Source: Catajapyx aquilonaris
Lineage: Eukaryota
Reading direction: 5' to 3'
Assembly (NCBI GenBank): GCA_000934665.2
Contig: KZ538882.1
Span: 1 to 42,401, forward strand
DNA length: 42,401 bases
A model generated the notes under the pieces. It did not search any database and had not been told where the DNA came from. It worked only from the letters and a program-made list of their open reading frames with translations. A program made the translations under genes and the position numbers. This document shows positions 6,775 to 42,401 of the stretch, one piece after another. Each line of letters starts with the position of its first letter. The first letter of the stretch is position 1.

Positions 6775-7052
6775 GTTTTCTGTAAAATCCTAGTCACATA
6801 TATTAAAGCACGATAAGTCTGATGAGACAAACAGCATTTCAGTGTCAAGCAAAGACTATAAATATGGGAACTTCATCGTGTTCTCTCCAAATACCATGAA
6901 GCGAAACTCTGGACTCGGGAAGAGCCCCCCATTATCTGAATACCCGGTAAACGCCTGGCATAGCTTGGTTCACATAATTATGTGCGGCATAAATTTTTGT
7001 TTGGCAAAGTTGCCATAAATTACTCCTTGTGCAAAACCAGATGTTCTTATAT

Positions 7053-10087: not shown

Positions 10088-13000
10088 TCAATCAGTCTTT
10101 TCCTTTGCCTTCAGGAATTCCTCAGCTTTTTTCAGAAGAGATTCTGAATATAGAAAGGACCTGGACAACCACTCCTTGCTCTTCTTGGCAGCCAGTTCCC
10201 AGATCATCTTGCTGGACTGCATGGTCATCTCCATGAACTTGATGGCCAGAGCTGTCATCCAACAGGACAGGTCAGCTCCACTTTGATTACCAGCTGAAAT
10301 AATGTTAGCAACATTTTAGAATATATAATTACGTCTGGAACTGTGCATCTTACCATCCTGCACTTCCTGCCAGTCGACCCCTATGGCCTTGGCAAGCTCT
10401 GGATCAGCTGTAAAATTCCCATCACATTTGATGAAGGACATGACCAGCGCAAGTTTTTTCCTAGACTCTGGTGCAACAGTAGGTGGCTCTGGACCATATC
10501 CACCTCCACACATGGGATATATCTTCCAACAAGAGGTGCCTCCCGTTGGAGATGTGACATAGTACATCAGCCTTATCATGCGCCCTTGTCCGCCCCAGCC
10601 ATTTGCGATCTGACTGGCCACCTGTCTGGTCTGAATGGCCCACAGCTGACCATTGTCTGACAAACACTGTCTGCGAGGATCGACAGCTATGAATGACGTC
10701 TGCGATGACACCAGACCATACTTGAGGCCCAGCTTAACTATCTCTTCCTTCAGTCTTTCCTCACAGCGTCCCAGAATTATGGAATGAAGCAGACTCGTAC
10801 CTTCCTCCAAGTCGCGGATCAATTTGCGGGCTGCCAACCTGGAATAAATGGTTGCAATTATAGGAAGGCCTGTTTACGATGGGGTTAGGTTCCAGCCAAG
10901 CTGGGTCGTCAAATGAAATACCATATTAAACCCTACATGTATACAAGTAGTGCTCGTTTTATGTCAGGGATGTGTTCCAGCATTAGAGCGGCATAAGTAA
11001 ATTAGCAATTATAGCGTACGTGAATGAGATTGGTTACAAAATTAAATGGCATAAAACTAGGCGGTATAAAATGGGCAATACTTATCCATACACATTTGGA
11101 GATCATTAAATGATAATTATACTAACTTATGCACAAGATCCCCTTGAACAAAATCTTCCTCTTTCACTCTGACCGATGTGGTCAGTGGTCCGCATTGTGA
11201 ATTGGCCGTGATGGTGACACCCGTGGGGACACTCCCATCCTCCCAAATGCAATATACGAGCAAGCGGGCTCCAAAATACATGGAGGGAATCTGAAAAATT
11301 ATTTTAGTGCCAATTTTACACAATAACAATTTCATAATCCATGAAAGAATATTAGTCCAGTTCATACGTGGAATGGAGCTCCTTTTGGTCCATTAAGTGC
11401 ATCTTCAGTCATATTTTCCTGCTCAGTTGGCTTCCGGTAACCCAGCAGAGTCTTTTCTCTCACAACTTTATATTTTGGTTTTGAGGCAGAGGAAAGTCCT
11501 TCCCAGCTCACAGAGACCTCTGAATAACCAATTCATAGCATTGGGCATGAGGCATTGAAGGTGTTTTAAAGGGGTTTAAAGTCTAATTTTTGGCACTTAG
11601 AGCCTTACGTATGTCTACTCGTCAATAATTATTCTCACCTGAGAGGGATGGATAAAGTGCGTTTTTGAGCTGCCTCTGCACCTTTGGCTCCAGTGTCTCG
11701 TTGAATGTTGCGTACTCTGCTGTTCCTCCTCCAGCACGAGCTATCCCTCCAACCAGGTGGTGAGAGACACTGTTACCAATTCCAAGGGAGAACACACGGG
11801 TGTTGTGGAAGTTCTGCTTCACCAACTTGATCACCTCGTCTGTGTTGCTCACCTTCAGAGATGAGGAACAGTGGCCAGATTGAGTTCAATGAAAATGTGG
11901 GAAATTATGACTCACCGCTCCATCAGTCAGTACAAATAGTTGTCGCAGGTACCCCTTGACTGGTTCCTGCCTGAATATTTCCTCGAGCGGGCGGAATATC
12001 TCGGTACCACCCAGATCTGCCTCAATCCTGCTCACGTGACTGATGGCTGTATACAGTGTCCCATCCTCATACTTGACACTCCTTTCGAATAAACACTCAT
12101 GATGGCTTCCGAAGCCAATGATGTTAAAGTAACAGTCTGTCGGCAGCGATTGAAGAAAGAGCTAGGAGAGGAAACATGTCGTTAGTACTTAGTAACATTA
12201 TGCGAATGTAGGCTGAGCACTCTTGCCAGCTCCTATTGTGTAATTGCAATATTATATATGTGTAATGGGAATATCTACAGTAGCGTTATAAGCGGGATGG
12301 CCTGCCTACACCACTCCTGCTGCCTCTACCGCTGGTACTGTATATCAGCCGTGTAATGTACAGGGATAAGAAAGGAAATAGCAGATGCCAATACTGCAGA
12401 TTGTAACAAGGCATTATTGGATTAAAACAATGTGCAACTTACAGTAAGAGCCTCCTTGGCCAACCTAATGCAGCCACTCATAGACCCTGATCGATCCAGC
12501 AGAAAAACTAGTTCGGCTGGCTGCTCATCCAGGATGAATCTAGGAACGAGGCTTACGAAGGCTGCTGTGCTCTTCTCTGATTTCTGTAAAACAAAGTTAT
12601 ATTCATCGATACTTATAGTTTTCATTATATTAATGCAGATGTTCGATTTGTAATAATAGGAAGCTTACCTCGACGCAAACCCTTGGCTGATGAGGGTTCT
12701 CAGTGGTCACCAAGAGAATGAAATCCCTGTCCATGTCCATACTTTGACCTGTGAGAGACGCACTGGCAGAATAAAAACCTCCTTCATGAAGCAGTGTGTT
12801 TCCTATGTCTGTGGTGACCGAATGTGTTGGTGACTCGATGCTGATGATTTTTGACTTCATTTCACATTCAACTGAAATCTTCATGGGAGCTGGGGATGAC
12901 CTGCAATGTTTTAAACGGTGCAATAAAATACTGATTGTTGCCTGCATGTAGATGTTCCTTACAATGAGTAGAGCATGTTGAAGATTTCCTTGCTCTCCTG

Positions 13001-13519
13001 ACTGGTGTCCGACTTGGGGATGTACCTACGGGCGATGGTGGTTGGAAGGAAGAACCTGAGGGCCTTCCCCTCAACGGATGTCTCTGTGAGATAGACCAGC
13101 CTGATCATGACCTGATCCCCTGGAGAGAGGTTCCCCACCTTGACCTGGAAGATGTCCGGCTTTTTCTGCATGGTCAGGAAAGAGGCCTGCTTCTTCTTCA
13201 ACGCCTCCTCATACTGCTTCTTGGCCTCCTCCTTCTCCTTAATTTCTCCTTTGACCGTCCTTCCGTCGCCCAAGTCCGCCTGGAACTGGACCACGCTGGC
13301 CTCCTCGTCCAGCGGGAACATGTACACCGCCTCCACCGGACCCTTCTCCTCGTTCCTGTAGGTCTGCTCAAGGGTGACCTCCGCCACGAAGTCCACCAGA
13401 CGAGCCTTAACAGACACTTCCTTCAGCGGAATGGGAAAGATCTTGTCTTCTTCTCCGCGCAAGAACATGACCAGGCCACATTCCAGGGGATAATCGCTGA
13501 GGACCGTCTTGGGGGCCAT
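10088..13519 (-). CDS. VWA5A: VWA5A-like protein, array copy 2, ~798 aa, 9 coding exons
   Basis: Exons 12963-13519, 12669-12900, 12443-12583, 11916-12161, 11639-11852, 11368-11519, 11127-11290, 10354-10838, 10088-10293; GT-AG, frame intact (2397 nt). MIDAS DRSGS..GGTE..TDG retained. Confidence 0.92.
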
Positions 13520-13539
13520 TGTCTCTGTAAATTCTGAGG

Positions 13540-13570
13540 CAGTGCTTCTCAACTGGGGTTCTGCAAGAAA
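13540..13570 (+). mobile_element. Possible hAT-type MITE terminus just upstream of the copy 2 first coding exon
   Basis: CAGTGCTTCTCAACTGGGGTTC resembles the CAGTG.TTCTCAA termini of hAT/Charlie non-autonomous elements. The matching end was not clearly found. Confidence 0.3.
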
Positions 13571-14061
13571 TAGTGATCAATATAGGCTATTGAGCAAACA
13601 AAATTCCTTTCTCTTACCAACTTTGGTGACAATGATTCTTTCGATTTTGCCTTGCACGAGAAAGTGTAAGGCGTCCCAATAGTTTTTGAGAAGTGAGAAA
13701 ATTTAGGCCAGTTCTTACTTTAGTTACTTACAACGTTGCTGTCACGAAAAATCACATGAAACCCATCACTAAATTTGGTGACATGCCTGCCCTGATTCCA
13801 GCATGGTCTGGTGGGCTGAAAAACAGCAACGCCGCTAATATGAATAGCTGCTAAAATATTTAGCAGTTCTCTAACCGATTCGAAGAAGATGCTATTCTGC
13901 TAATCTGCTATCATAGGGATTGTCTTGCTGACTGATCGACTAGAGTGTTCTGCAACTAATAATTATACTGCATATATACTAATATTGCACGATATTTACT
14001 AATAATAAAGTTTAATACTGGATTCGACATTGTATATACAGGAAGTATAATGTAATTAAAC

Positions 14062-17000
14062 TTAATCCGGCTTCTCCTCGGTGACTCCTTTTGCCTTCAG
14101 GAATTCCTCAGCTTTCTGCAGAAGAGAAACTGAATCTGGTGTTGACTTGGACAACCACTTCTTGCTCTTGGCAGCAGCCAGTTCCCAGATTGCCTTGCTG
14201 GACTGCATGGTCATCTCCATGAACTTGATGGCCAGGGCTGTCACCCAACAGGACAGGTCAGCTCCAGTCCGACCACCAGCTGGAATGTTGACCACATTTT
14301 TTTTTCACTGGGAATAAACAAACTTGACCTTGCTACAGTTCTGTGAATATCAACATGACAAGTATAGGCTACGTCCGGAAATTTTACGTGCATATATTAT
14401 GGTGGTGTTGTTTCTGGAACATCCCACTCACCATCATTCACCTCTTGCCAGTCGATCCCTATGGCTTTGGCAAACCCTGGATCGGCCAGAAATCCGCCAT
14501 CAAATTTGATGAAAGCCATGATCTCATGAAGAGTCTCCGACGTGTTCTCTTCGAGCTCGGCAAACGATTCCAACTGAGGCATGAACGAACTCCTACTCGC
14601 CTGTTTCTCCAGAATCCCTCCTGTCGTTGGAGCAATCGTTTCGTCAGGTTGGAAACTTACTGGTGGCATCAGCACTCTCTTATTGTTGGCACAAGTCGCC
14701 CTGCATTGTTGCGTTTGATCGACTGGCCCGGAAGTCAGCGTGAGTCTGTTAGGTCGAGCCATTGTCATGCGTCTAGTCATGTCAGATTCTAGCGACACTG
14801 GGATCGGCATGGCTCTAGTTACAGGAGCAGACAGAGCTACTGTTGCTAGAATGGCGTCTGCTGGACTGGCGCTGTACATCATCATCCTGGGCTGTATTCC
14901 GTGCCACCCGTGCGGGATCTGACTGGCCACATGCCTCGTCTGAATGGCATACAGATCCTTGTCCATACCATGTCTGCGAGGATCTACGGCCACGAATGAC
15001 GTGTGAGACGACACCAGTCCATACTTGATCCCAAGCTTCACAATCTCCTCCTTCAGTCTTTCCTCTGGAGGTTCAGAGATGACTGAATGAAGCAGGCTCG
15101 TCCCTTCCTCCAAGTCGCGGATCAATTTGCGGGCTGCCAATCTGTCCAATATATCAGATCAACTTCCCATTTTCTTTCAAATTAAAAAAAAAATTGTACT
15201 AATCCGAAAAAGTGCAGCGAATTGTTGAAAAAAAATATGGACATATACTTATGCAAGAGATCTCCTGTTAAGAGATCTTCCTGCGTGACCTTCACAGTCG
15301 TGGTCAGTGGTCCGTCTGGTGACTTGGCCGTGATGGTGACACCCGTTGGGACACTCCCATCCTCCCAAATGCAGTACACCAGCAACCTGGAGCCATCAAA
15401 CACTGGCGGAATCTGCAAACGCAAAAACAAAATGTCATTCCATACACAAAATATTGTACTGTCGGACTTGTCACACACGTGATGTGGAGCACCCTGTGGT
15501 CCTCTCAAGGCCTCTTCCGTTGTCTGTGTCTGGCCAGTTGGCTTACGGTATCCCAGCAGAGTCTTCTCGGTTGTAATTGTCGAGTGTGGTTTTAAGGCGG
15601 TGGACACTCCTTCCCAGGCCACAGACACCTCTGTATAGAGAATAGACGGAACAGTTTTCGCCAATGATCTCAGCAGACTGAATTGTCATGTGCCAATGAC
15701 CTGAAAGTGCAGGAAACAGAGCGTTCTTGAGCTGCCCTTGCACCTTTGCCTCCAAAGCCTCTTTGTATGTTGCGTACTCTGCTGTTCCTCCTCCAGCACG
15801 AGCTATCCCTCCAACCAGGTGGTGAGAGGCACTGTCACCAATTCCAAGGGTGAACACCCGGGTGTTGTGGGAGTTCTGCTTCACCAACCTTATAATCTCG
15901 TATGTGTTGCTCACCTTCAATAATGAGGAGCAACTGTCAGATGTGTTAAGACCAAAATGTTGAGACCCACCTGCCCATCAGTCAGAAGGAACATTTGTCG
16001 CAGGTAGCCCTCGATTGGTTCCTCTCTGAAAATGTGGCTTAGAGGCGTGTATATGTCAGTTCCGCCCATGTCAGCCTCGAGGTCTGAAAGCCACATTATT
16101 CATTATAGCAAACAAGTCAAATAATAGTCTGGGTGACTTATTTACTTGCGGCGTGACTTATGGCAGTCTTCAACGAGTCGTCGTCGTACTTGGCACTCTT
16201 CTGGAACAAAAACTCGTGTTCGTTTCCAAATCCAACGATGTTGAAGTAAGAATCTATTGGCAAGGATTGAAGAAATAGCTAAGGAAGATAAAAAGAAAGT
16301 TGACGTCATCCTGACGTCACTTTCCTCTCTGGAAATATGGCAAATAAAATATTTAAAAATGCAATTGTAACAATGCAGGCGTACAGTGAGGGCCTTTTTG
16401 GCTTGATCCAGGCTTTGGCCGGTCATAGATCCGGATCTGTCCAGAAGAAAGATCAGTTCCACTGGCTGCTCATCCAGATTGAAACTGGGGACAAGACTAA
16501 CAAGGGACGCCACACTCTCTCCCCATTTCTGATAATCAATTGCTCATTATTAGTACAGTACTACAATGAGTTGATTCACAGAGAATATGAACTTGCCTCG
16601 ACGCAAACCCGTGGCTGGTGAGGGTTCTCAGTGGTCACCATGAGTATGAAATCCCTGTCCATGTCCGTAGCTTGACCTGTCAAAGTCGCTTTGCCACAGT
16701 AGAAACTACCTCCGTGAAGCAGTGTGTTTCCTATGTCTGTGGTGACCGAATGTGTTGGTGACTCGATGCTAATGATTTTGGACTTCATTTCACATTCAAC
16801 TGAAATCTTAATTGGGGCCGAGGATGACCTGAAATGTTTTCAACCCTGCCAATCAACCGTAATGAGAACACAGTGCGTAATTGCAATATCCTTACAATGA
16901 GTACGCAATCCTTGAAATTCTTCTCACAGCAGAATTAGTCCTGGACAACTCCGGAGTGTACCTAGGGGCGATGGTGGTTGGAAGGAAGAACCTGAGGGCC

Positions 17001-17455
17001 TTCCCCTCCACGGATGTCTCTGTGAGATAGACCAGCCTGACCTTGGCCTGTGCCCCTGGAGAGAGGTTCCCCACCTTGACCTGGAAGATGTCCGGCTTGT
17101 TCTCCGAGGCCAGGAAGGCCGTCTGCCTCTTTTCCATGGCCTCCTCGTACTGCTTCTTGGCCTCTTCTTTCTCCTTCACCTCTCCCTTCACGGTCCTTCC
17201 GTCCAGGTCCGCCTGGAACTGGACCACGCTGGCCTCCTCGTCCAGTGGGAACATGTACACCGCCTCCACCGGACCCTTCTCCTCGTTCTTGTAAGTCTGC
17301 TCAAGGGTGACCTCCGCCACAAAGTCCACCAGACGAGCCTTGACAGACACTTCTTTCAGCGGAATGGGGACAATTTTCTCTTCTTCTCCGCCCAGGATGA
17401 TGATGACCATACCACATTCTCGGGGACATTTTTTGAGGGGCACCGTGGGAGCCAT
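14062..17455 (-). CDS. VWA5A: VWA5A-like protein, array copy 3, ~879 aa, 10 coding exons
   Basis: Exons 16896-17455, 16597-16828, 16385-16528, 16146-16278, 15971-16083, 15701-15914, 15479-15630, 15249-15412, 14432-15141, 14062-14279 (2640 nt). One GC-AG intron (donor GCAAGT at 16596). MIDAS DRSGS..GGTD..TDG. Confidence 0.9.
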
Positions 17456-18005
17456 TTTTAATGTAAATTATGTAATATTCTCTTGATTATTTTAGGGGAG
17501 AGCACACGACGATATTGATTGTATTGCAAAAGTTGAAAAAAATACCTAATTATGCTGAATGCAGCTCTCTACAGCTACCAAGAATCCATTTGTCCTTGCA
17601 GATACAAAACCTGCCAAGTTTTACTGGTTTCATATTTCCAACAATATACTGTTTATTGTCCGTAACTATAGCTAGAAAAAATATGTTCGACGCAACAATC
17701 ACCATACTGGATAATAATAATTTTGTGGCAAGACTTGTGGTTACTTTCAGTGATCTTTTAATTGCCTTAACTTTATTAATTGTGATAGATACAAAAGCAC
17801 ATGAAATTTTACTTGAAATTAATGAAATCCCTCACTTTCACACCTGTAAAATAACTGTGTCAAAAAAGGGCCTCTAATACAATTAGGCTATGTGAACCCC
17901 TCTCAAATGGTGACCATTATTACGATAAATCTTCTGGTCCGTTATATTTCTCCTTATTCACATTAATATAACTTTCGAATGACAAACAGTGTCAAACATT
18001 ATTAT

Positions 18006-21000
18006 TCAGAGAGTCGACAGATGTATTCCTTTCGACTTCAAGAAATCGCCAGCCTGTGTCAACAAGGAATCAGCTTCTGTCACTTGAGTGGACAACCACT
18101 TCTTGCTCTTCTCAGCGGCCAGTTCCCACATATCCTTACGTGAACCCAATTTCATTTCCAAGAAAGCCACACCCAGGGCTGTCAACCAGCATTCCATTTT
18201 GACTCCAACTTTATGTCCAGCTTTAAAAAAGACAAGAAAATGTGCACATTAAAATCCCAACAATTGATCAGAAAATCCAGAAAACATGTTTTACTGAATA
18301 TTTCCATTTTTTTAAACACACTATACCGGCCTGTATTTCTTCCCAGCAGATTTCAACTGCCTTTGCAAATCCTGGATCCGCCTTGTAGCCACCATCAAAC
18401 TCCATGAACGAAAGCAGTTCATGTGTCCTTCGTTCTAAAGGAGACATGCCCAAATTAGAACCACTGGAATCCAGTGTTCCAGTTGTTGTATCCACGGTTG
18501 TATCCGACAAGTCCCATATCTCTGTTAAAAATGGAGGCATCCTTTTGGCGGCAGGCATCCAACCATCGGAAGAACTGCTGCACTGTTGCGACCCAGTCTC
18601 TAGTCTTTCAGACTCTAGTCTTTCAAAACCCGGCCTTTTTGTGCCAATGGGTAATCTAAGACATTCTTTTATTCGGCAAAATTTGACTGGACCGCCATAA
18701 TTTGGAATACGACGCGTCTGTAAAATTGACAAACTGAAATCATTTTCTGCCGTCTGATTTTCAGGATCCACTGCTACGAAAGACGTGTGAGTCGATACCA
18801 TGTCTGTAAAGTGAGGCACTCATTTATACAAAATGTACAAGTAAAATGATCAGGACTACCGGATAATGACTTTTTACAATAATTGTATAATAATTCCTTA
18901 CTGTATTTGCAGCCAAGTTGAACAATCTCGTTGGCTACTACTTCTCTCAAGGGTGCATCATCCTTATTTTTATGCAGATAACTGCTTCCTTCTTCCAAAT
19001 CACGGATTAGCTTCCTGGCAGCGAGTCTGGAAGTGACAATTTAATCAATGTTTTTAATCAGATCACCACCTCACTAATCTGCACTAATCGGTTCGCTTAC
19101 TTATGCACAATGTCGCCTTGAAACAAGTCGTCTTCAGTGATGGTGACAGACGAAGAGAGAGGGCCATCAGGTGTTTTAGCAGTGATGGTGACACCTGTGG
19201 GGACAACACCTTTTTCCCAGATGCAATATACCAGCAGTCGTGATCCGTTGAACACTGGCGGAACCTAAAGTACAATAGTGCAATTTATTTATTTAATAAC
19301 TGACGTGTATTTAGCCATACATTGAATGGCGCTGGTTTTGGAGCAGATTCCTCTGAAGTCTTGACAGGTTCAGATTTGCTGGAAGATGTTCCTTCCCACT
19401 TCACCGCAATGTCTGCAAATACGCCATAATTAAAGCCATATTTTTATATATATAAAAACTTGTCACTTGGTCACCTGTCAGTGCTGGACACAATGCGTTT
19501 TTGAGCTGCCTTTGAACTTTAGGCTCCAACGACTCGTTGCGTGTGGCGAATACTGCAGTTCCTCCTCCAGCTCTAGCAATACCTGAAACTAAGTGATGCG
19601 AGACGTGATCCCCGATTCCCAAGGCGAAGACCCGTGACTTGTGACAATTCTGATGCACCAAACTGATCACCTGATCCGTGTTGCTCACCTTCGATATATG
19701 ACAACACCCGTCATTAACACAACTGAACCTGCCAGTAATTAATATAACAATTTACCCGTCCATCAGTCAGGACAAAAATCTGCCTGACGTATCCTGTGAT
19801 CTGCTCTTGAGAAAATATCGCTTCCAGTGGTTCGTAGATTTCTGTACCACCCAAATTGGCCCGAAGATCTGTGGTGTACAAAAGTGTTAACAACTTGTCC
19901 AGTATGTTTGTCAACACTTACTTACCGAATTGGACGTAATTTAAAGCAGTTTCCAAGGACGTGGAGTCATACTTCACGCTCCGAGGAAATAGTAACGAGA
20001 AACTGGATCCGAATCCAACAATGTTGAAGTAACAATCGGCCGGTAACGAACGAAGGAACAACTGTTGAAAAAGATAACATGTATTGCGTTACAATAATAT
20101 TACTGAAAGGCGTGGAAAGCAAGAAAAGCCAAATATTTGGCAAAAACTTTCACATACGTAAATATGAAAGTTTTTGCCAAATGGGGCTTTTCTTGCTTTT
20201 CTTGAATTTTCTGCTCTCCATAGATCTATGGAGAGCAGAAAATTCGCATTAGTTTTCATACTGTTAGAGCTCTTCGGGCCAACTCGGTGCTATCTCTTCC
20301 CATAGATCCAGATCTATCCGTAACAAAGACCAGTTCAGTCAGCTGTTCATACATTTTAAAGCTCGGCACAAGACTGACGAATGCAGCCACGCTCGACTCG
20401 AATTTCTGTGTTGTTAGAGAAACAATCAGTTGCATTTTCCTCTACTTTTTTTAAAAATATGCTATAAATTGTGCCTAACCTCAACACCAGCACGTGGATG
20501 GTGAGGATCATCTGTTGAGACCAAGAGGACAAAATCTCTGTCCATGTCCGTGGTCACTCCTTCCAACTTGGCTTCTCCTTTAAACATCTTCCCTCCAGCT
20601 TTGTCGTTCTGAGTGACTGCGATTATATCATGGCTAGGAGATGACATCTTGCAAATTCGTGACTTCATCTCGCATTGGACTTGGATTTTCATCGGAGCTG
20701 GCGAGAAGCTGAAATTATCTAATAAGTTAAAAAGTCGATGCAACCAGTACAGTATACGTACTTGCTGTAAGGAATTGATTGGATCTCTTGCGATTCAGGT
20801 GAAGTGTCTGTACTTGGCACGTAACGAGGTGCGACAGTCGTTGGTATGTAGAATCGCACGTTATTGTCTCCTTCAGCCTCCATTTCAGACAAATACGCCA
20901 GTTTGATCGTAGCTTCAGAACCAGGCGCCAAATTCCCAATCCTCACCTGCAGATTATTTAGAAACAAAACATCCGACAGAGAGAATAAGCCTATTAGGGA

Positions 21001-21365
21001 AAAAAATATACCTGAAATATGTCCGCCTTGCTTTGTCTGAGCAAAGCTGCAGCTCGTCTTTGTTGGATGGCATTATTATATTGCTTCTCAGCCTCATGCT
21101 TTTCCTTGACCACTCCATTGACCGTCCTTCCGTCCAGACGAGCCTCGAACTGGACAACACTGGCCCCTTCGTCCAAAGGGAACATGTAGATGGCCTCGAT
21201 TGGACCACCTTCGTCATTCCGGTACACCTGCTCTAGTGACACTTGAGCCACGAAATCCACCAGACGGGCCTTGACATCAACACTCTTCAGAGGAATCCGA
21301 GGTCCGTTTCCTTCAGGACATGATATGTACAATCCGCAAAAATTTGACACCAGATCTCCAGCCAT
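18006..21365 (-). CDS. VWA5A: VWA5A-like protein, array copy 4, ~815 aa, 12 coding exons
   Basis: Exons 21012-21365, 20762-20946, 20480-20708, 20262-20405, 19926-20061, 19756-19868, 19475-19688, 19321-19412, 19101-19264, 18902-19026, 18327-18803, 18006-18220 (2448 nt). Start GCCATGG. MIDAS DRSGS..GGTE..TDG. Confidence 0.9.
20116..20199. repeat. Long imperfect inverted repeat (hairpin) in an intron of copy 4
   Basis: AAAGCAAGAAAAGCC (20116-20130) pairs with GGCTTTTCTTGCTTT (20185-20199). ATTTGGCAAAAACTTTCA (20135-20152) pairs with TGAAAGTTTTTGCCAAAT (20165-20182), leaving a 12-nt loop. Confidence 0.92.
20204..20245. repeat. Perfect 42-bp palindrome in the same intron
   Basis: GAATTTTCTGCTCTCCATAGA|TCTATGGAGAGCAGAAAATTC is its own reverse complement. 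Confidence 0.97.
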
Positions 21366-22199
21366 GGCTCTGAAAGTACATATGACCTGCGTGTTTATAT
21401 ACACTGCGTACATCTGGCCTTGAAATGTGGCACTGACCATGAGCCTTGCAAATATTTCCTGCTTGTGACCTTGGCCTTAACCGATGCAGCCTGCCTGTCA
21501 ATCTGTCACAATTTGCATTAATATTATGTCCATTCAATGCTGGGTGACATGTCAACAATAATAATTGTACAAGTACCTTCCGATCTGAAGAGCTGTCGAT
21601 GCTCAACTAAACCGTAATATCATTCGCCCTGTGATCTAAACATGTGTGTGTCTATTTCCAACCCAACATTGTGCGAATATTTTTGCGAGATGTAGCCTTG
21701 GAAATAAAGTCGCTAAAATGATGATCCTCTTATCGTACGTATATGCATAAAATGTGTATACGCGTAAGTTACAACTCAAAAAATATGTTCAATCTTTAGG
21801 ATTAAGACATGAGAGATTAATTTTTGTCGCAAAAATTTGTAGGCTAATTAATTTTTTCACCATTTTAATATTGTTGATAATAAATTTTTTTGCTACCCTC
21901 TCATCAAAGCCTCTCATGGACTCGAAAAAATACGATCCAATGGAGCAAAAGTAAATTGGCAAAAAAAATTCGTCATATCCGATTTATATTTGCAGTGTTA
22001 CTTCTCCAGGCCATCAGCATTCGCAATAAACGATTTCATGTAAAAATAAATTAATATTGCAATTCGTTTACACTTGACAATGACTTTGACATGACACACT
22101 TGATTTTATGACAACAATCGGAGAGGTTCAACAATGATTGTCATTGTCACCAAGGAAACAGCTTGTTTTGAATGTCAGCTGCTCAGTTCTGGTGGAGTC

Positions 22200-22847
22200 A
22201 TGGCTGCTGATGAAGTGAGTATAATTAGCACTTTTAATTAGCATTAATGTTGGCTCATAAAGATAAGGATTGCTCGTCAATTGTAGTGTAAAATATTGTA
22301 ATATTTACAGGATCTTCATCTGATCCGTGCTCTGGTCACATCCCGTCCTGGTGTCCCTTTTAAACGTTTCCGCACCCCAGAGGATCAGGCTCAGTACAGG
22401 GTGATCCTGAAGGGCATGATAGACTCACTGGAGGAGGAAGAGAGGTTGGCGAAGGCAAGGATGGGTCAGAAGGGTGACACCGCAACACTGGTGGTGGGAG
22501 AGCAAGGTGACCACCCATCATCATCAGCAGGTCCTGCTCCTGATGGAAGCGGTGACATCCAGTCACAGCCTGGAGGATGCGGACAGAGCAGGGTTCCGGA
22601 GAAGAGGGGGTCAAGTGAGCTTCCGGACCCACCCAGAGAGGCCAAGGAGGCCAAGAGAGATGACTTGCCAGAGGATGACAGCTCCGACGCTACTGATGTC
22701 ATCGAGATGTCTGACGATGACATCAGTGACCTCACTGATGATGATGATAGCGACGTCATTATTATTGATGATGATGATGATAGTGACATCACCGACGACA
22801 ACGATGAGGATGTGGAGCTGCATGAGGAGCCTCGTCTGACTGGCTGA
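22200..22847 (+). CDS. Orphan acidic, largely disordered protein (~183 aa) with tandem SUMO-interaction-like motifs
   Basis: Exon 1 22200-22214 (GTCATGG context; MAADE|GTGAGT); intron ends TTTACAG; exon 2 22311-22847 is in frame. GC-rich coding-like composition against AT-rich flanks. AATAAA at 23048. The C-terminus contains VIEMSDDD, ISDLTDDDD and VIIIDDDDD. Confidence 0.75.
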
Positions 22848-23476
22848 GTTGCATCAATCCGGTTGATGTTACAAGAGTTCCATTTTTGTTATTTCGTATT
22901 TTGTGTTTCATGCCATGTTGGATGTATTCTGGCCTATTCTGGGTTCAGATTATTATTATTTTTTGTAAAGGCAAGAGGACAACAAAAGTGCAGTTTTTTT
23001 TTCTCATATAATATTACTCTTGGATCAACAACTTGGACAGCATGCAAAATAAATACGTACACAGTATATCAGCCTTAGACAACTTTATTAATATTTTAAA
23101 GTACAAGCTAGAATTATCAAACAATAACTTATTGACCAGCCCAGATAAGTTAGTGAAGCATGAAGCATCCTGTGTTATTGTAGAAAATATTAATCATATA
23201 TGTTCTTAGATAAATAATTTTAAATGCCACTCGTTACAACGACATGGCAGTCTTGTTAAATGTCCTCTTTAAAATAGGCTATCACATTATTATATTCCAC
23301 TGCATTATGCTTGGTTTGTAAGTCTGCAACAGTCAATATGTTTTCCGACAAGCTGCGACAAAAGCCCCATAGCTATTATGCGCATGCAATAAAGTTTTAA
23401 GGTCCCACGTGTAGTCATGTAAATTACATAAAATAATAATAATATCTGGTATTATTGATAATTTTTTTCACAGCCG

Positions 23477-26400
23477 TTACTTTTTGGATCGGAGAAATTC
23501 TTCGGCTTGTTTCAGAAGAGAGTCGTAGTCGCTGGGAATCTCTTTCTTGAGCCACTTCTTGCTCTTGAGGGCCACCAGCTCCCAGCTTTCTTTCTCGGAT
23601 GGCAATTCCAGCTCCATGTACGCCACGACCAAAGCGGTTAGCCAATACTTCAAGTCGACTCCACTTGCTCCTGTGGGGAAAAGTAATTGCGGGTTTTAAT
23701 ATTACAAGAAATGCCTCCTGGACAGTCGCGTATTTTTACCATCTTTCATATCTTCCCATTCGATTCCAATCACTTTGCTTATCCCTCCTGTTCCAGGATC
23801 AACACTCCCGTCGAAGTTTATCAAAGCAAGGAGTGACTCGAGTGGACCTGGCTCAATAAATGCATCTGTGTTTTGGACTCCAAAACCACTTGGCATCCCA
23901 AAAGTAAAACCTGTGCCAACTGCTGGCATTGGTTGTTGTATCGGACCACCAAATAATTGACCTTCATTATTGGCAGATCCATCAGAACCAAATGACGGTT
24001 GAGATGAGCGCAGGTGTTGGCACAATACAGAAAATCCGCTCTGTTGTTGGCTATTCGCACCAAAGGAAAATGCTGGAGTTGCTTCTGGTTTCGGTTGTGC
24101 TCCAAAAAGGCCGGAATTATTTGTTGCTGCTGTTTTTGCCGTGGTTGTGTCCTCGACAAGTGCAGATAGATTATGAGAATGAAGCTGCGGCTGGGGGGTG
24201 GCACCAAAGGAAAATCCAACAGGAGCTGATTGCATAGTTGATTGCGCTCCAAAAAGACTGGACTTAATAGCGACAGGTGCTGTCGTTACTGGAGCATATG
24301 CCGTACAACCAGAGGAATCCAAAAATAGAGAATGTTGTGTTGAAGAGCCGAATGGAGTGGCTGCTGGCCCACATTTCAGCTGCTGTTGCTGCTGCTGCTG
24401 GGGCTGGGGCTGTGCTCCAAATAATGAGCCAAAATTAGACTGATTTGCTGGAGCACCAAAACTAAATCCAGTGCCCGGCCAAAGCGGACCCTGTGAAACA
24501 GCCCCAAATGGTTGAGAGTAGCCATGCCCTAGTCCAAACTGATTTGGCACTTGACGAGTGTGAATCATCCATGATTTGCTCTGCTCAGCATGTACTCTCG
24601 AATCAACAGCCACAAATGATGTGTGTCTGGATGCCAAGCCTGTAATTCAACAAATATTAATTACTCATCCATAAAATACGCAGGCATAATTACAATCATG
24701 CGTATTTACCATATTGGCAGCCAAATTTGACGATTTCAGCTTCGACATCTTCCGGAAGAGGTATGCCAGTGACGCTATGCAAATAACTTGTCCCTTCTTC
24801 CAAATCACGAATTATCTTTCGGGCTGCGAGCCTGTAAAATCAAGATCGGTTCGTACGAAGTTGTATGATATTACACTGTCGACTTACTTATGCACCAGAT
24901 CTCCCTTTAATACGTCGTCATCTCCAATAGTGATGGATGCAGAGAGTGGACCATCAGGAGTTTGGGCAGTGATGGTGACTCCGCTGGGGACACTTCCGTC
25001 TTCCCAAATGCAGTAGACCAGAAGACGTGACCCATCGAATACAGGTGGGACCTGTACGGCCAGGTTATATATTAACGAAACATGTAATTAACATCGAAAC
25101 ATTATTAACTTGCATGAAATGGAGCACTCTTTGGGCCGATGCACCCTTTTTGTGCAGCATCTGGACTTTTCTTGGGCTTCCGATATCCCAACAGTGTCTT
25201 CTCCGTGACAAGCTCTACTTCAGGTTTGCTCACAGAAACATGCGGTGTTCCTTCCCATGTGACGGTCACGTCTGAAAAATCATCGCAGATCAGTTGTGCA
25301 CTACTAACAATGTGTTAAATACGAAGCTTACCTGTCAGGGTTGGAGACAGAGCATTTTTTAACTGCCTCTGCACTTTCGGTGCCAACGTTTCATTGTTAG
25401 TGACAAATACGGCGGTTCCTCCTCCAGCACGTGCTACACCTTCCACCAAATGATGCGAGGCACAGTCCCCAATGCCCAGTGCAAAGACGCGTGACTTGTG
25501 GCAATTACGATGAACCAAACTGATCACCTCTTCGGTGTTGCTGACCTACGAAATAAACTTCATGCGTCAATATATATTGTGCCATTTATTCCAAACTGAT
25601 CAGCTCACCTGTCCATCCGTGAGAAGGAACACTTGACGTAGATAGCCTGCGATAGGCTCCTTAGAAAAAATCGCTGCGAGAGGGTTATATATTTCTGTTC
25701 CGCCAAGATTGGCATCAACCCCTGAAAGTAATAAACTCTTTTAGACCATCACACATCTTGCCAATACTTGGCAGTAACTTACGATATGCAGTGTGATTGA
25801 GGGCTTTGTGCAAAGTACTTGAATCGTACTTGACGCTATTCGGAAACAGCATCTCAAAAATACTTCCAAAACCAACGACATTAAAGTAACAGTCGGTTGG
25901 TAACGAATGCAGGAAAAGCTGAAAGGAAAGCAATGTAATCAGACCGACATTACAGTAATGTTCATACAATTATTACCATTAGCGCTTGTTTAGCCTGACG
26001 AATACTCTGTCCACCCATAGATCCGGATTGGTCGAGAACAAATATCAGCTCCGCTGGTTGCTCATCCAGATTGAAGCTTGGAACGAGGCTCACAAAAGCA
26101 GCGACACTTGCTTCAGATTTCTAAACAACAATGTAGTAATTAGACTCCATAATAATTGTACAAGAATCGATAACAGTACCTCCACACAAGCTCGTGGTTT
26201 GTGAGGATCATCCATCGTCACCAACAGGACAAAGTCACGATCCATGTCCGTTGAGTGGCCAGCCAATGAAGCTTCTCCTCTGAATAACTTCGCATCGTTG
26301 TCTTTCTCGTTAATTATGTTAACGATAACCTTATGGCTCGGAGACACCATTTTATTAATCGCCGACTTCATCTCGCATTTCACCTCAATTTTCATCGGTA

Positions 26401-27177
26401 CTGGCATGTAACTGAAATGATAGTTTGTAGTTAATCATCCTCGTTAGCGTTCTGCGTAGTCTTACTGCGTATAAGGCACATTATGAATATCTTGCGCTTC
26501 TTCGGTGGTGTCCGTGCGGGGTATGTAACGAGGCGCTATTGTGGTTGGCAGGAAGAATCGTACCGCTTCTTCTTCACATGACATCTCGGCAAGGTACACT
26601 ATCCTTACTTTGGCCATAGCACCGGGAACTAAATTGCCAACCTTCACCTACGTTACCGAAAAGAAAAGCCGTCAGCATTTTGAATCTATTACAAGTTAGT
26701 AAAGTCTCACTTTGAAGATGTCAGGCTTGTTCTCCTCGGCCAAGAAAGCCGTTTGCCTGTTAGCGACAGCCTGCCGGTATTGCTGCTCAGCGTCTTCCTT
26801 CTTCTTGACGACACCGTGAATGGTACGTCCATCCAACTCAGCTTCGAACTGAATAACGCTTGCTGCTTCGTCCAGCGGAAACATGTACACGGCTTCAACC
26901 GGATTCGCCTCATAGTTCTTGTAGGTCTGCTCCAGCGTCACCTCCGCAATGAAGTCCACCAAATGCGCTCGTACCGACACATCTTTCAGCGGAATCTGAG
27001 CGCAGCAGGATCCGTCCGCTTTGGTAATACACAAACCGCTGAATTCCTCCTCCAGTCGTTTAGGTGTCCATGGTGTCCAACCTATAATTATCTGCCAGTT
27101 AACATACCGGTACACTGTATTATTATTTAAAAAATTTAAATCACTGCGGCATTACCTGTCGGTCCTTTCCCAAACAT
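23477..27177 (-). CDS. VWA5A: VWA5A-like protein, array copy 5, ~983 aa, 13 coding exons, with an FG-repeat linker
   Basis: Exons 27156-27177, 26711-27081, 26466-26647, 26180-26411, 25977-26120, 25783-25918, 25609-25721, 25332-25545, 25114-25271, 24888-25051, 24710-24831, 23740-24639, 23477-23670 (2952 nt). One GC-AG intron (donor at 25113). MIDAS DQSGS..GGTE..TDG. Confidence 0.9.
23879..24538 (-). repeat. Coding FG-repeat region (14 FG motifs) with a short polyQ
   Basis: QFG, PFG, FSFG, NFG, SLFG, PFG, SLFG, FSFG, GLFG, FSFG, SFG, QLFG, FTFG, GFG within ~220 aa rich in Q/S/T/A/P/G/N. CAG-type Q7 run at 24380-24400. Confidence 0.93.
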
Positions 27178-27242
27178 TGTGAGCCGCAATGAGTCTTCGT
27201 ACGCAACACGCTGAATGTCCTTCCTGGCTTCCCTTCCCCAGC

Positions 27243-27619: not shown

Positions 27620-28991
27620 TCACTTTTCTCCATCAAAGTTGGGCCATTCTATCGACATCTTGTGATCCGCTCCCATGAGATTCATTGCGATTGCCTATTT
27701 TTTTTAAAAAAAAAAATTAGAAAATGCAATGAGTCGGCACAATGCCCGCAATAATAAACCACAATGTATATTTACCATCGTTACCCATCGAAGATTCTCA
27801 GTGGACTCCCACGTGCGTGACTTCTTATGGGAAAATATGTCTTCGCTCACTTCATGACCTTTCCTGGGCAATCCGTGCAGCAGAATCCAATCCAATTGTG
27901 CTTCATCAACTTCCTGTAATTATTTATTTAATTATTATTACCCTCACGGTACATTTAAACCGACCGGTGTATACCTTGTTGGTCAGGCACAGTTCGCTCA
28001 TATCGTGCGGTCCTACAGTAATAACATGCGATCGGTACACAGCCTTTGCTGGACTGTCCGACTGGTGTATCTCTGTCCTGTGATGCATCCCAAGCTTCAT
28101 TCCTGCACCGAGTCGTTCCTGGCTTAATTCGTTACCCTGTAAGCAAACCTGCTGGTTACGCATACGGTATTATCCGCATTGCGATGAATATACCTGAGGA
28201 CAGAAGTACTGTAGATGAATCCCAAGTTTGGGCAGAAGTTCAACATAAGTCTGCAGTAGTGGTCCGGATGGTCCGACCCAACTGGCTTTTAACCGCTTCA
28301 GATATCCGTAATGCTCCAGGGCGGTCATAACATTTGCCATGGCCTGCAACGGCTTGAACTCATCCGAGCCGCAGTTGACAGTCGGAACATTAGAGCCATC
28401 GGCTACTTGTTCTAATGCTTTGTGTGAGTGGCTCTCCATGAATATCATTTGGCACAAACTGGCAGCCGTCCTGTCCATTAATATAAAATGAAAAGCTATA
28501 TGTGACATCCTCTAATAATAATTTAGTACCTTCCGATATCTTCATGATTTCCTGTATTGTCTGGAGAATAATTCATGTGGCACGCAGCACCTTCCAGAAG
28601 ATTAATTGCTGAGGAGACCCCCAAATGGCTTGCGATGCTCGTTGGCGACAGGAACGAAGCAGCAACTTTGCCTTTCAAGTACGGAAAAGTCTGCCAATTA
28701 ATTTTAAAAGTAATTAATAGTATGTCAATTAATTATAATTAAAATGCTATATTTATATTACCTTCTTCCCATCACGCACAGCAGTCTTCAGATCCAATGC
28801 GGACCACAGAATGAATTTTAATTCTGAACTGCTGTAGTCTACAGGCGACAAAAAGTCTCTCCCTCTAATATCACAATACCTACATTATAATTAATCATAA
28901 TTAATTAATCATTATTAATAAGTACAATGCATACAATTAAGACAAACCTGGTACAAAACGATCTAGCATTTCGTGATGTGATTCTCAACAT
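27620..28991 (-). CDS. OTC: Ornithine transcarbamylase-like protein (~324 aa), predicted mitochondrial, catalytic motifs degenerate (pseudoenzyme)
   Basis: Exons 28948-28991, 28762-28879, 28530-28690, 28194-28470, 27975-28136, 27776-27913, 27620-27694 (975 nt, no stops or frameshifts). Collinear with animal OTC: GRDFL..ILWSALDLK, LKGK, VPTVN..SD..PLQ..EHYG.LK.L..SWVG, DW..LH.LPRK..EV..DIF...S....EN..W..M. N-terminal MLRITSRNARSFC is presequence-like. Confidence 0.85.
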
Positions 28992-29706: not shown

Positions 29707-30309
29707 ATGAGCGTGCAGGGCAGGCTGGTCTTGCAGCAGTGCGTCAAGGCGCAACTGAAGCTGAGCGATGACAACATTCTGAAGGTGAATTTCTAAAATT
29801 GTGTTCATTTCGCACTGTTTAATCGCTCGATTTGTCTGCAGATTGGAAAAGGCATGGTGATTTTTGTGTGCTTCATGCAAGGAGCCACATGTGACGTCAT
29901 TAGTAAAATTGGTAATGTAACGTAAGCCAATGATGGTTTTAATAAGATATCCTAACTGGACTTACCGCTTGTTTTATTCACAGTAAAAACATTGGTTAAT
30001 GTACAACTGAGCGAGGATGTGAATGGGAAGCGACGATCTATCCTGGACATTCCAGGAGACTTGCTGATAATCCCGCAAGCCACCTTGGGTGGTAAGGTTC
30101 GTGGGAAGACGATGCAATACCATGGGAATGTGGAGAAGGAACTTGGACTCAAGTTGTACTCGGATTTGGTGCAACAAGTGAAGGACGCATGTGCGCAAAA
30201 TGCAGCGTGGCTTGAGGGAGGGTGTGTGGTCCACAGTGGTTCGTATGGTGAGAGGCAGGTGCTGTCTATGGATACCAATGGGCCTTTCACACATGTACTG
30301 GAATTTTAA
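29707..30309 (+). CDS. DTD2: D-aminoacyl-tRNA deacylase 2 / Animalia-specific tRNA deacylase (ATD), 157 aa
   Basis: Exons 29707-29784, 29842-29911, 29984-30309 (474 nt). Motifs LQQC..A.L, GMVIFVCF..GA, SILDIPG..LIIPQATLGG, MQYH.N, YG.RQVL..DTNGPFTH..EF* match human DTD2. AATAAA at 30580. Confidence 0.96.
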
Positions 30310-36300: not shown

Positions 36301-36312
36301 NNNNNNNNNNNN
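36301..36312. other. Assembly gap (12 N) inside a poly-T tract
   Basis: Run of N flanked by T homopolymers. Confidence 0.99.
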
Positions 36313-36634
36313 TTTTTTTTTTTTGGAAATGTTCCCGTGGACTATACTGTACGGAACATGTCACCTTGGGTTGCTCTCCTGTCTCATGGCGCCCTTTTGT
36401 GTGTTTTTTTATGAGAATTTAAAGTGTCGGACTGACGTAACAGTGCAGGTCAGTAACGTCCACTTCTTAGAGGTTATACAGAGTACACATTATTTTGCGA
36501 CGTAAAATGTTTTTCATCAGTAGTTTTATTTGGCTGGAAAAAAATCACAGTGAGTCTCTCATTGATGTTGGTGGCTCAACTTTTTAGTGACTGGTTTTGT
36601 CGAGGCAAGAATTTTTTTTTGGATGAGAGTTCTT

Positions 36635-38514
36635 TTAGGCAGGAGTGAGACCCAGATCATTGAGGAACTTCTGGAAAAGCGCGTTGAACTGCTTGATCTC
36701 ATCCTCATGGTCCTTGTAGAACTGCTGAAGCTGCTGTTCCAGAGTGTTTGCTGCATCCTGAAGCTCCTGGAAGATATCCTGACCCAGTGCCTTCAGCTGC
36801 TCGACCAGGACTTGAAGCTTGGCCTTGATGGCAACCCACTCTTGCTTGGCCCATGCGATGAACTCCTCAACACGTTTCTTCAGGATGACAGCCAGATCCT
36901 CCAGGAGAGCCTTGCCCTTCTTTGCTGCAGACTCAAAGTCCTTCTCAGCCTCTGAAGCGTCTCTGGAAATAACATTTTCGCCATTACAGAGCCAGTTCAG
37001 AGATGTCTACAGTCCCTTTAAGCCAAAGAACGATCTGACGTCACAACAGCCATGCCACGTTCAGCCCTGCTTCCATCTTCCCTCCAATCACGAATCGCTC
37101 TGCAAGTATTCTTCTACGCATGCTCAGAAAACACCAGACGTGCTTTCTGAACATGCGCAGAGCGATTCTGGGACGTGATTGGAGGGAATAGCCTGGTGGA
37201 CGTGACGTCAGCTCGTTCTTTGGCTTAACGGACTGTAAGAACTTACCCCTTCTGCAGAGCGTGGATGCCATTGACGACGTCGGTCAGAGCAGAGTTGACA
37301 GCGTCCTTGTTGTCGTTGTAGAACTGGACAGTGTCGTCGATTTCCTCATTGCCGACCTTGTTAACCTCATCCAGTACCTCTTGTACGAACTTCTTCACCA
37401 CCTCAATATCAGCCTGGATTGTTGGCTGGATCTTCTTGTACTCAGCCTGTGCCCAGGCCAGCAGAGCATCAGCGTCCGCCTTGGCAGTTGGCTCGAAATC
37501 CTTAGCCAGAGTCTGCAGAATCTGGGCCATCTGCTCAGCATCTTGGATGGCAGGAGTCAGATCAGTGATGCTGCGAATAAAATCCGTTATAGAGATGTTC
37601 AGTCTGTTGTCATAATTTTAACTTACTCGTGGACTGGGATTCCAAGGGACTTGAGGACCTGAAGGATATCGCGCCACATGGCGGTGAACAGATCCTTGTG
37701 GGCCTCGAAGAAGTCGGCCACACTTTTCATCAGAGTTTGCCATTCGACGGCGAAATCGTTGCCGAACTATAGTAAGAAAATGAGTTGATTAGGACATGTC
37801 TAATTAGTACATTAGTTGTAGAGTAATCACATCGTTAGCAAGAGTCTCCAAGGCCTCAAGAGCTGAATCCAGCAGGGGCTTGAGGGCCTCCCACTTCTCC
37901 TCAACCCATGTCAGGAACATCTGGACATCATTCTTCAGAACAACACCAAGATCCTTCAGGACAACCTCCAAATCTCCAACGATAGCTTCGATATCCTTCT
38001 GCAAACCGGCAGTATCACTGGAATATACATGGTTAGGTTAACCTACAGTATGTTATACCAAAGAACGGGACCTACCCAGCGTCGATCTTCTTCATGGCAT
38101 CCTGAACAAGGCCGTAGATGTCCTTGACCTCCTTGGAGTGGTTTCCGATGAACATGAGGGCCTGGAGGGTGACATCGTGGTTGAACTCGATCACATCAGC
38201 CAGGACAGCCTTGCCCACTTGGACTAGGGCCTCTCCGGCCTTCTCAATCTCTGGTTGAAGATGTACTCCTTCGGCCTCGAGCCATTGGATGAACTGCTGG
38301 ATGTCCGTGGCACTGGCGTCCACAGCAGCTTCCACAACCTGGGTGAGGTCCTTGATAAAGTCGATGATTGGGTCATCCGCTACCTCTGCAAATAAGTGGG
38401 TCATAACCTGTGCTAATTGGAGTCATAAGGGGATTTAAAAAACGTACTTTTTGTAGGCAGGGCATTGCAGGTGCAAAGACCGACAGCGAGGAAAAAAGCG
38501 AGAAAGAACTTCAT
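36635..38514 (-). CDS. Secreted acidic amphipathic-helical protein with four ~105-aa repeats (~451 aa), apolipoprotein/lipid-binding-like, paralogue A
   Basis: Exons 38448-38514, 38076-38385, 37831-38017, 37627-37766, 37247-37570, 36635-36962 (1356 nt). Signal MKFFLAFFLAVGLCTCNA. Repeats carry F-h-x-W-h-x-x-E/K-like cores (FIQWLEAE, FLTWVEEK, LLAWAQAE, FIAWAKQE) and F-[FYI]-x-x-[HN] motifs. Visibly GC3-rich codons. AATAAA at 36525-36530. Confidence 0.85.
37010..37235. mobile_element. Tc1/mariner-type MITE (226 bp) in the last intron of paralogue A
   Basis: TA flanks at 37008-37009 and 37236-37237. ~35-bp TIRs: CAGTCCCTTTAAGCCAAAGAACGATCTGACGTCAC / GTGACGTCAGCTCGTTCTTTGGCTTAACGGACTG. Further internal inverted repeats: CCCTCCAATCACG/CGTGATTGGAGGG and GAATCGCTCTGC/GCAGAGCGATTC. 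Confidence 0.88.
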
Positions 38515-38581
38515 CTGTAAGGAAAATGTCGTCAGCAAACTTTCTTAATTGATGTGTTAAATGTACGGGCGCAGAACTCAC

Positions 38582-38644
38582 CTTGTCTGACTACCCAGTA
38601 CTCTGGAGTGGCGGACAAGGAACGTATCTCCATTCAATTTATAC
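38582..38644 (-). promoter_or_regulatory. TATA box and short non-coding first exon of paralogue A
   Basis: GTATAAAT at 38644-38637. Donor AG|GTGAGT at 38581. Acceptor TTACAG directly before the ATG at 38514. Confidence 0.6.
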
Positions 38645-42350: not shown

Positions 42351-42401
42351 CTGGACAACATGTTAGTTCAATGCTGTCATCTCCAAAACTGTATATACTT
42401 A

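Follow-up and report, generated by a model that had tools for sequence, protein, structure and literature searches.

In contig KZ538882.1 of the Catajapyx aquilonaris assembly GCA_000934665.2, the fifth of five tandem VWA5A-like genes contains a real, in-frame region of nucleoporin-style phenylalanine-glycine (FG) repeats inside a gene of the VIT-vWFA type. The stretch analysed, referred to as the window, comprises positions 1 to 42,401 of this contig, and the FG region lies on its minus strand in the gene that we call copy 5. We think it fairly likely that the FG segment represents the copy 5-specific form of a disordered loop, located between the VITpt2 strand and the C-terminal domain, that is general to VWA5A/Vwa1-type proteins.

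The FG-repeat region of copy 5

The FG region and the parts of the exon that surround it are located as follows.

23879..24538, minus strand: FG-repeat region, 220 aa with 14 FG motifs, residues 655-874 of the predicted 983-aa protein
23740..24639, minus strand: exon 12, exactly 900 nt, encoding the VITpt2 strand, the FG loop and the first part of the C-terminal domain
24602..24625, minus strand: HTSFVAVD, a VITpt2-like conserved strand directly before the loop, with invariant residues in all five paralogs
23741..23845, minus strand: first part of the C-terminal domain (PLESLLALINFDGSVDP…IEWEDMKD), alignable with all four paralogs

On the minus strand, which is the coding strand, the first FG codon pair begins at 24538 and the last one finishes at 23879, exactly the limits given in an initial annotation of this DNA. 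That annotation had also counted 14 FG motifs in about 220 charge-poor residues together with a run of seven glutamines, and our own count agrees: there are 14 FG motifs in 220 aa, 11 charged residues (5%; K+R 5, D+E 6) and a net charge of -1. The motifs are SLFG (twice), GLFG, QLFG, FSFG (three times), FTFG, NQFG, QPFG, SNFG, TPFG, PSFG and SGFG, which corresponds to a density of 6.4 per 100 aa and a mean FG-to-FG spacing of 16.8 aa. Fourteen of the 20 phenylalanines precede a glycine, another four open an F[S/T]FG motif, and the remaining two stand in apparently decayed motifs, SLFL and GFSV. FG motifs and charge clusters do not overlap within the region, and Q, N, S, T, A, P and G together make up 69% of the copy 5 linker. 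The Q7 run is encoded at 24400-24380, and Tandem Repeats Finder reports a CAG/GCT array at 24379-24412.

Such a number of motifs is not expected from composition. In 100,000 composition-preserving shuffles, 2.74±1.47 FG were obtained with a maximum of 11, and none reached the observed 14. Taken together, all six-frame open reading frames (ORFs) of the window that are 60 aa or longer amount to 22,065 aa and contain 56 FG, of which the FG-bearing ORF has 14 and the runner-up three. Part of this excess stems from internal duplication, as described below, and the 14 motifs are therefore not 14 independent events.

The gene model and its transcription

The remaining features of the copy 5 gene are listed below. 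X1 denotes a public sequencing run, the kind of which is not on record; five of its contigs lie over positions 23400-27200 and are 100% identical to the window.

23477..27177, minus strand: complete coding sequence of copy 5, the VWA5A-like gene with the FG repeats, comprising 13 exons and 983 aa; nine of the 12 introns are bridged by intron-less X1 contigs
26711..27081, minus strand: exon 2, VIT domain (Pfam VIT PF08487, E 8.7e-31, scoring 106.8 bits where the cut-off is 26.5)
25332..26120, minus strand: vWFA domain on four exons, recognized by collinear sub-threshold Pfam matches
26019-26033, minus strand: intact MIDAS motif (metal ion-dependent adhesion site), DQSGS, residue 299 of the copy 5 protein
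23477..23670, minus strand: last exon, with the second part of the C-terminal domain and the stop codon; sharing 52-60% identity with the corresponding exons of the four paralogs and joined to exon 12 in an X1 contig

In the gene model, the coding sequence starts with the ATG at 27177, stops at 23477 and forms a 983-codon frame without an internal stop. The model combines splice junctions from the public contigs with GT-AG and frame logic, three of the 12 introns being inferred. All introns are 54-74 nt long; 11 are of the GT-AG type and one is of the GC-AG type. The latter (25052-25113, minus strand, GCAAGT…ACAG) is bridged by an RNA-derived contig. The stop-to-stop frame around the FG segment (23702-24646, minus strand) encodes 314 residues, the ends of which resemble the window's other VWA5A-like genes, with a middle rich in Phe-Gly. 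The initial annotation had placed the segment in frame within one 900-nt exon with VWA5A-type ends, and this placement holds, as the exon spans 24639-23740 and is alignable with the four paralogs at either end.

Several features justify the family name. The vWFA domain is represented by positions 2-24 of PF00092 (VWA) on the first of its four exons and by positions 26-66, 72-107 and 111-155 of PF13768 (VWA_3) on the next three, each piece falling under its gathering score because the introns split the domain. When the VIT exon was compared with solved structures in the PDB, the PARP4 VIT region matched with an E-value of 1.6e-20 and ITIH4 with only 4.8e-4. The N-terminus, read by eye only, has no hydrophobic stretch hinting at a signal peptide. 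The VIT match, the collinear vWFA pieces, the MIDAS motif, an N-terminus without an evident leader and the much better match to PARP4 than to ITIH4 make it reasonable to call the gene "VWA5A-like", in the sense of a VIT-vWFA protein that is intracellular. As judged from the gene model, the product would quite likely be a cytosolic VIT-vWFA protein of 983 aa in which the FG domain lies between two folded parts.

The copy 5 gene is transcribed, and the FG segment is retained in the RNA over 23739-24372. Run X1 contains 46% of the gene's sampled words, and its contigs skip nine stretches of 56-74 nt that are bounded by GT/GC..AG on the minus strand; the contigs therefore derive from spliced RNA. 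One of them, 1219 nt long, bridges the 3' donor of exon 12 (intron 23739-23671) and joins the last exon to an unbroken 23739-24372, so that 10 of the 14 FG motifs are kept in mature RNA. The RNA check proposed with the initial annotation thus succeeded for this part of the exon and left out its 5' quarter: X1 has no cover over 24416-24796, the main contig ends at the CAG repeat (24373-24417; the mapping skips repeats), and the run is uninformative there. The X1 word depth is 23.6 for the contig carrying the last exon and the FG exon and about 2-6 for the contigs over upstream exons; contig depth is unsuited to ranking isoforms or parts of a gene, and either 3' bias or a shorter 3' transcript could produce this difference.

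Five tandem paralogs and the loop of the family

Four further tandem VWA5A-like genes were delimited using the ORF list, alignments and linker statistics (approximate positions).

3354-6789, minus strand: VWA5A-like gene, copy 1
10103-13576, minus strand: VWA5A-like gene, copy 2
14089-17467, minus strand: VWA5A-like gene, copy 3
18030-21476, minus strand: VWA5A-like gene, copy 4

Both ends of exon 12 align in frame with these four genes, through HTSFVAVD…TRQV upstream and L..F..DG…DP…K…W…G downstream. Unlike these two flanks, the linkers between them cannot be aligned with each other. In copies 1 to 5, respectively, the linkers are 96, 56, 133, 94 and 236 aa long, with charged fractions of 26, 14, 17, 26 and 5.5%, and contain 0, 0, 0, 0 and 14 FG; the observation in the initial annotation that the other four copies lack the repeats was thus correct for each equivalent linker. 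After the loop, about 99 aa are again conserved among the paralogs, and all five genes finish with a conserved last exon.

This layout has a counterpart in the literature. In the VWA5A clade, the order of elements has been described as VIT, Hyb-1a, vWFA, Hyb-1b, a three-helix bundle, a VITpt2 strand, a "long disordered loop" and a helical C-terminal domain of about 101 aa (PMC10539598). The conserved strand, non-alignable loop and about 99 conserved residues of copy 5 match this architecture (PMC10539598). The FG region occupies the position of the loop between VITpt2 and the C-terminal domain (PMC10539598) and is therefore probably a recomposed family loop and not a foreign domain. The earlier description of an FG domain embedded in a VWA5A-like protein stands as far as the location within a VIT-vWFA gene is concerned, and the idea of a foreign insert probably does not. 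In AlphaFold models of Dictyostelium DdVwa1 and human VWA5A, the C-terminal domain is docked on the vWFA domain, suggesting autoinhibition (PMC10539598).

As in VWA5A/BCSC-1 and the Dictyostelium Vwa1 clade, copy 5 carries its VIT domain at the N-terminus and has a DxSxS MIDAS in its vWFA domain; a leader is apparently missing too, as read by eye. The TSFVAV strand followed by a long non-conserved loop and a conserved C-terminal domain of about 100 aa, as well as lineage-specific tandem amplification, which has been reported for Dictyostelium, are further points in common (PMC10539598). The C-terminal domain of copy 5 is likened to that of VWA5A/DdVwa1 by layout. What sets copy 5 apart from the described members of this clade is that its loop is an FG array (14 FG in 220 aa, 5% charge). 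Comparison among the five linkers suggests that the loop is quite likely the fast-evolving part of the protein in this tandem array.

PARP4, the vault PARP, is the best solved-structure match for the VIT exon and, via copy 1, for the segment with the helices and the VITpt2 strand: the copy 1 stretch equivalent to the HTSFVAVD segment aligns with PARP4 1122-1183 (E 5.4e-4), ending in …FTSFVAVE. PARP4 also has its own long spacer between that strand and a C-terminal helical MINT domain (residues 1562-1724, PMC12280208). It differs in having BRCT and PARP catalytic domains, both absent from copy 5. The possibility that the C-terminal domain is a vault-binding (MINT-like) domain was dropped, as both the last exon alone and a profile of the five paralogs failed to retrieve PARP4. 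A second copy 1 stretch scored -2.4 bits against PARP4 1532-1594, which is not significant.

Some additional observations concern the array as a whole. Two groups of intron structure can be distinguished, copies 4 and 5 having two introns, one following "DIF[KQ]V" and one preceding "xxSxHTSF", that are absent from copies 1-3. The VIT cores of the paralogs are 46-58% identical to that of copy 5 over the aligned ORFs. Each paralog loop has a composition of its own, as would be seen if the array diversified through its loops; that of copy 1 (3551-4240, minus strand), for example, is Cys-rich, six of its 96 residues being Cys, with an acidic run (DDELDDVEVQEEE) at its end.

Comparison with nucleoporin FG domains

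The sole family match of the exon ORF in Pfam is Nucleoporin_FG (PF13634) with an E-value of 2.1e-4, its score of 22.5 bits lying under the gathering cut-off of 32.2. By features, the ESM-Atlas clusters closest to it are one of Nucleoporin_FG (0.84), then NUP98A (0.79) and Nup42 (0.76); scores such as these, all below 0.9, count as a lead only. Like the GLFG domains of Nup98/Nup100/Nup116 and the N-terminal FG domains of Nup62/Nsp1, the FG region of copy 5 shows xLFG and FxFG motifs that follow one another at intervals of about 17 residues. Uncharged, Q/N/S/T/A/P/G-rich spacers and mixed xLFG/FxFG motifs are hallmarks of cohesive FG domains such as those of Nup98/Nup100 and the N-terminal parts of Nup62/Nsp1, and the copy 5 spacers are likewise uncharged, rich in these residues and predicted to be unstructured.

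The differences are also clear. Copy 5 has no pore anchor (coiled coil, autoproteolytic domain or propeller), its FG region is an internal loop between folded parts and not a free end, and no sequence homology to nucleoporin FG domains was detected for the segment. In nucleoporin FG domains, FG motifs are found apart from charged residues, and the FG clusters carry on average a slightly positive net charge (PMC3774778), whereas the FG region of copy 5 is about neutral. Pfam scans of the copy 5 exons revealed no nucleoporin domain, the other exons being VIT, vWFA or family-specific. As the Pfam score is under the cut-off, the Atlas scores are below 0.9, the pore anchor is absent and the charge is neutral, the predicted copy 5 protein is not a nucleoporin.

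Two other readings of the loop were tried and rejected. The sequence has no NPF, DPF or DPW, the motifs of an endocytic reading, and a GW/WG Argonaute-binding reading is ruled out by the presence of a single Trp.

Origin of the repeats

The xLFG motifs recur at residues 39, 95, 144 and 195 of the domain, defining units of about 50 aa with the pattern xLFG…F[S/T]FG.

24257..24424, minus strand: repeat unit 1 (LFGAQPQPQ7…), including the Q7 run
24110..24256, minus strand: repeat unit 2 (LFGAQSTMQSAPVGFSFGA…), 147 nt, matching unit 3 in protein and DNA
23957..24109, minus strand: repeat unit 3 (LFGAQPKPEATPAFSFGA…), 153 nt, matching unit 2 in protein and DNA
23879..23956, minus strand: repeat unit 4 (LFGGPIQQPMPAVGTGFTFGMPSGFG), truncated

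Units 2 and 3 have the common pattern TTA..SLFGAQ…FSFGA..Q.Q. Their protein Smith-Waterman score is 62, compared with 38±6 in shuffles, and was reached by one of 200 shuffles. At the DNA level, the two units score z = 5.4 against shuffles, and they are identical at 40/57 positions in the motif core and at 47/101 elsewhere. Two DNA repeats, D2 and D3, were found as well, one of 15 nt, exact and spaced 144 nt, the other of 25 nt with 84% identity and spaced 147 nt. The start of the loop, PNQFGLGHG, aligns with PN-YGG of copy 4 and with HGF, NGW and HGW of copies 1-3.

An internal duplication of about 147 nt together with a loop start alignable with the paralogs favours expansion in place from a Gly/aromatic seed. 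We infer that the FG loop probably arose, at least in part, by internal tandem duplication in place and not by capture of a nucleoporin exon.

Searches for relatives of the segment gave nothing. Word-indexed protein searches with the FG exon, one of them at E<=10, retrieved no homologue; a full HMMER scan of 1.84 billion representatives gave no match at E<=0.001; and a phmmer comparison of the FG region (220 aa) with every PDB chain sequence gave none at E<=10. PDB chain sequences include full-length FG nucleoporins from pore structures. These are weak negatives, because HMMER corrects for biased composition and the libraries are seemingly poor in eukaryotic proteins. In the window itself, neither the ORF list nor the Pfam scan revealed a nucleoporin gene.

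Opposing evidence and alternative explanations

A number of points weigh against the interpretation of the segment as a nucleoporin-style domain that expanded within the family loop. Because 8 of the 14 motifs belong to the four duplicated units, the shuffles make the motifs look more independent than they are. Neither the Pfam nor the Atlas comparison reaches its accepted level, and the net charge departs from that of nucleoporin clusters. The intron upstream of exon 12 (24709-24640, GTAAAT..TTACAG) was placed solely by reading frame and splice consensus. In the cores of units 2 and 3, synonymous sites are nearly identical and the spacers are near random, a pattern that selection, gene conversion or codon bias could explain. 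Within the window, growth in place and capture of an already repetitive fragment would look alike. A homologue search with the VIT exon at E<=1e-10, which was too strict, found none and thus provided no orthologue in which FG conservation could be gauged. Finally, AlphaFold2 on exon 12 alone gave a predicted local distance difference test (pLDDT) score of 36 and no secondary structure, with 30-43 in the loop, and this is only weak evidence for disorder because a single sequence served as input and low scores extended into the conserved flanks.

The alternative that survives best is neutral, low-complexity drift, in which the loop is a flexible tether of the C-terminal domain, a chance LFG/FSFG unit was amplified by slippage or unequal exchange, and there is no FG-specific partner. 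The loop is indeed the least constrained part in all five paralogs, ranging from 56 to 236 aa without being alignable; the segment contains both a CAG/polyQ slippage tract and the internal duplication of about 147 nt; and protein searches found no homologue or conserved relative of it. However, drift would not readily account for the fact that all 20 phenylalanines are in FG-type contexts (14 FG, 4 FxFG and the 2 apparently decayed), that six of the FG motifs are found beyond the LFG and FxFG cores that were duplicated, or that the motif cores of units 2 and 3 were kept (40/57 nt) with the remainder near random (47/101). Moreover, charge has been purged to 5.5%, compared with 14-26% in the sister loops, which is unexpected for drift of a plain tether. 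We therefore regard drift as possible but rather unlikely.

Capture, the origin that the initial annotation had considered alongside convergence, would require that a Nup98-, Nup62- or Nup58-like FG-nucleoporin fragment was inserted or gene-converted into the exon, yielding a true nucleoporin-derived mimic. Motifs of both the xLFG and the FxFG type, set among uncharged S/T/A/P/Q spacers, are typical of Nup98-/Nup62-type domains and would fit such an event, as would the Pfam Nucleoporin_FG match (E 2.1e-4) and the nucleoporin-like nearest Atlas clusters. However, that Pfam score is under the cut-off, no match was found among the PDB chains, the 1.84 billion representatives or the word-indexed databases (weak negatives, as noted), the units match each other while the loop start matches the loop starts of the paralogs, and the window is without a nucleoporin gene. 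Capture is thus unsupported, and we consider it very improbable. Least credible of all, with hardly any probability left to it, is the notion that the FG stretch is not a protein feature, either due to a pseudogene or due to an intra-exonic intron that removes FG from most mRNA: the RNA evidence stops short of the exon's 5' quarter and of the junction upstream of it, and cryptic splice sites are common in low-complexity exons, but the 983-codon frame is intact over 13 exons with canonical splice sites, the RNA-derived contig runs unbroken through 23739-24372 (10 of the 14 FG motifs) and is correctly spliced to the last exon, and the conserved segments flanking the loop are in one common frame.

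Possible function of the FG loop

Under the preferred interpretation, a family loop recomposed in copy 5, the loop would have lengthened to about 236 aa, shed its charge and become an array of ~50-aa xLFG and F[S/T]FG units. Provided that it is disordered and cohesive, it would then most likely act as a multivalent FG tether that links the VIT-vWFA core to the C-terminal domain. Such a loop might make weak Phe-mediated contacts, by analogy with the uncharged Nup98/Nup62 FG domains and the GLH helicases; its likely partners would be nuclear transport receptors and other FG domains; and these contacts might bias copy 5 toward the nuclear pore channel or toward FG-containing condensates. A role as a cohesive FG domain with affinity for transport receptors is plausible.

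The C. elegans FG proteins of this kind are DEAD-box helicases with terminal FG regions, mostly of the GFGG type, whereas copy 5 is a VIT-vWFA scaffold with an internal LFG/FSFG loop. What is shared with the C. elegans germ-granule FG proteins is a disordered FG-repeat region on an unrelated folded protein (PMC12669755). Non-nucleoporin FG repeats work in GLH-1, GLH-2, GLH-4, DDX-19 and RDE-12, tuning the content of condensates, and the FG regions of the germ-granule proteins are described as tuning both condensate composition and nuclear pore association (PMC12669755). Human VWA5A/BCSC-1 has been reported in the nucleus, in the cytoplasm and at the membrane (PMC12540739).

A bolder proposal, which we consider improbable, is that the array encodes diversifying, immune-type cytosolic VIT-vWFA scaffolds with the loops as their specificity element, the loop of copy 5 mimicking a nucleoporin. 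In that case, the loop could act in either of two ways: as a pass into the pore phase, by which the ~108-kDa protein would enter or dock in the FG phase of the pore unaided; or as a sponge or decoy in the cytosol, taking up clients that bind FG, for example transport receptors or FG-docking viral capsids. The decoy or pore-targeting function suggested by the initial annotation may exist, as pure inference. That vault-family proteins associate with nuclear pores is an old idea. A link between copy 5 and this idea is conceivable, the closest solved relative by sequence being the vault protein PARP4.

Other features of the window

Between copies 4 and 5, at 22302-22847 on the plus strand, there is an open frame of 181 aa whose end is a strongly acidic Asp/Ser tract. 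Hydrophobic cores of short length within this tract (…VIEMSDDD…, …VIIIDDDDD…) recall SUMO-interaction motifs in clusters, and the frame has no Pfam match. At 36566-42367 on the minus strand, there is a series of helical open frames of 114-135 aa that are 16-23% identical and have a common F[IV]AW.KAE…Q motif; no Pfam family scored above threshold for them. They probably form one gene of repeated helical modules. The remaining features are as follows.

28170-28511, minus strand: match to the aspartate/ornithine carbamoyltransferase N-domain (Pfam, E 1.5e-6, just under the cut-off)
29956-30309, plus strand: match to D-Tyr-tRNA deacylase (Pfam, E 2.9e-19)
36301-36312: run of 12 N, an assembly gap

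Novelty and implications

The remark in the initial annotation that such repeats were not known to have been described for VWA5A agrees with our full-text literature search, which found no link between VWA5A and FG repeats. Literature on non-nucleoporin FG repeats, screened by title or abstract, yielded no VIT-vWFA protein, and a search on VWA5A gene expansion found nothing mentioning VWA5A. What is known is the family loop and the class of non-pore FG-repeat proteins; what is new is the nucleoporin-like composition of such a loop.

If the segment is only drifted low-complexity sequence, it would be a cautionary example, FG-like composition alone not making a nucleoporin mimic. If, on the other hand, the loop is a cohesive FG domain, copy 5 would be a natural case of a non-pore scaffold gaining pore-type selectivity by remodelling of a disordered tether, and the four adjacent FG-less sister genes provide a built-in comparison. 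Such a case could show: how an FG domain originates de novo; and which minimal pattern is sufficient for partitioning into pores or condensates. It would also provide a functional handle on the poorly understood VWA5A family.

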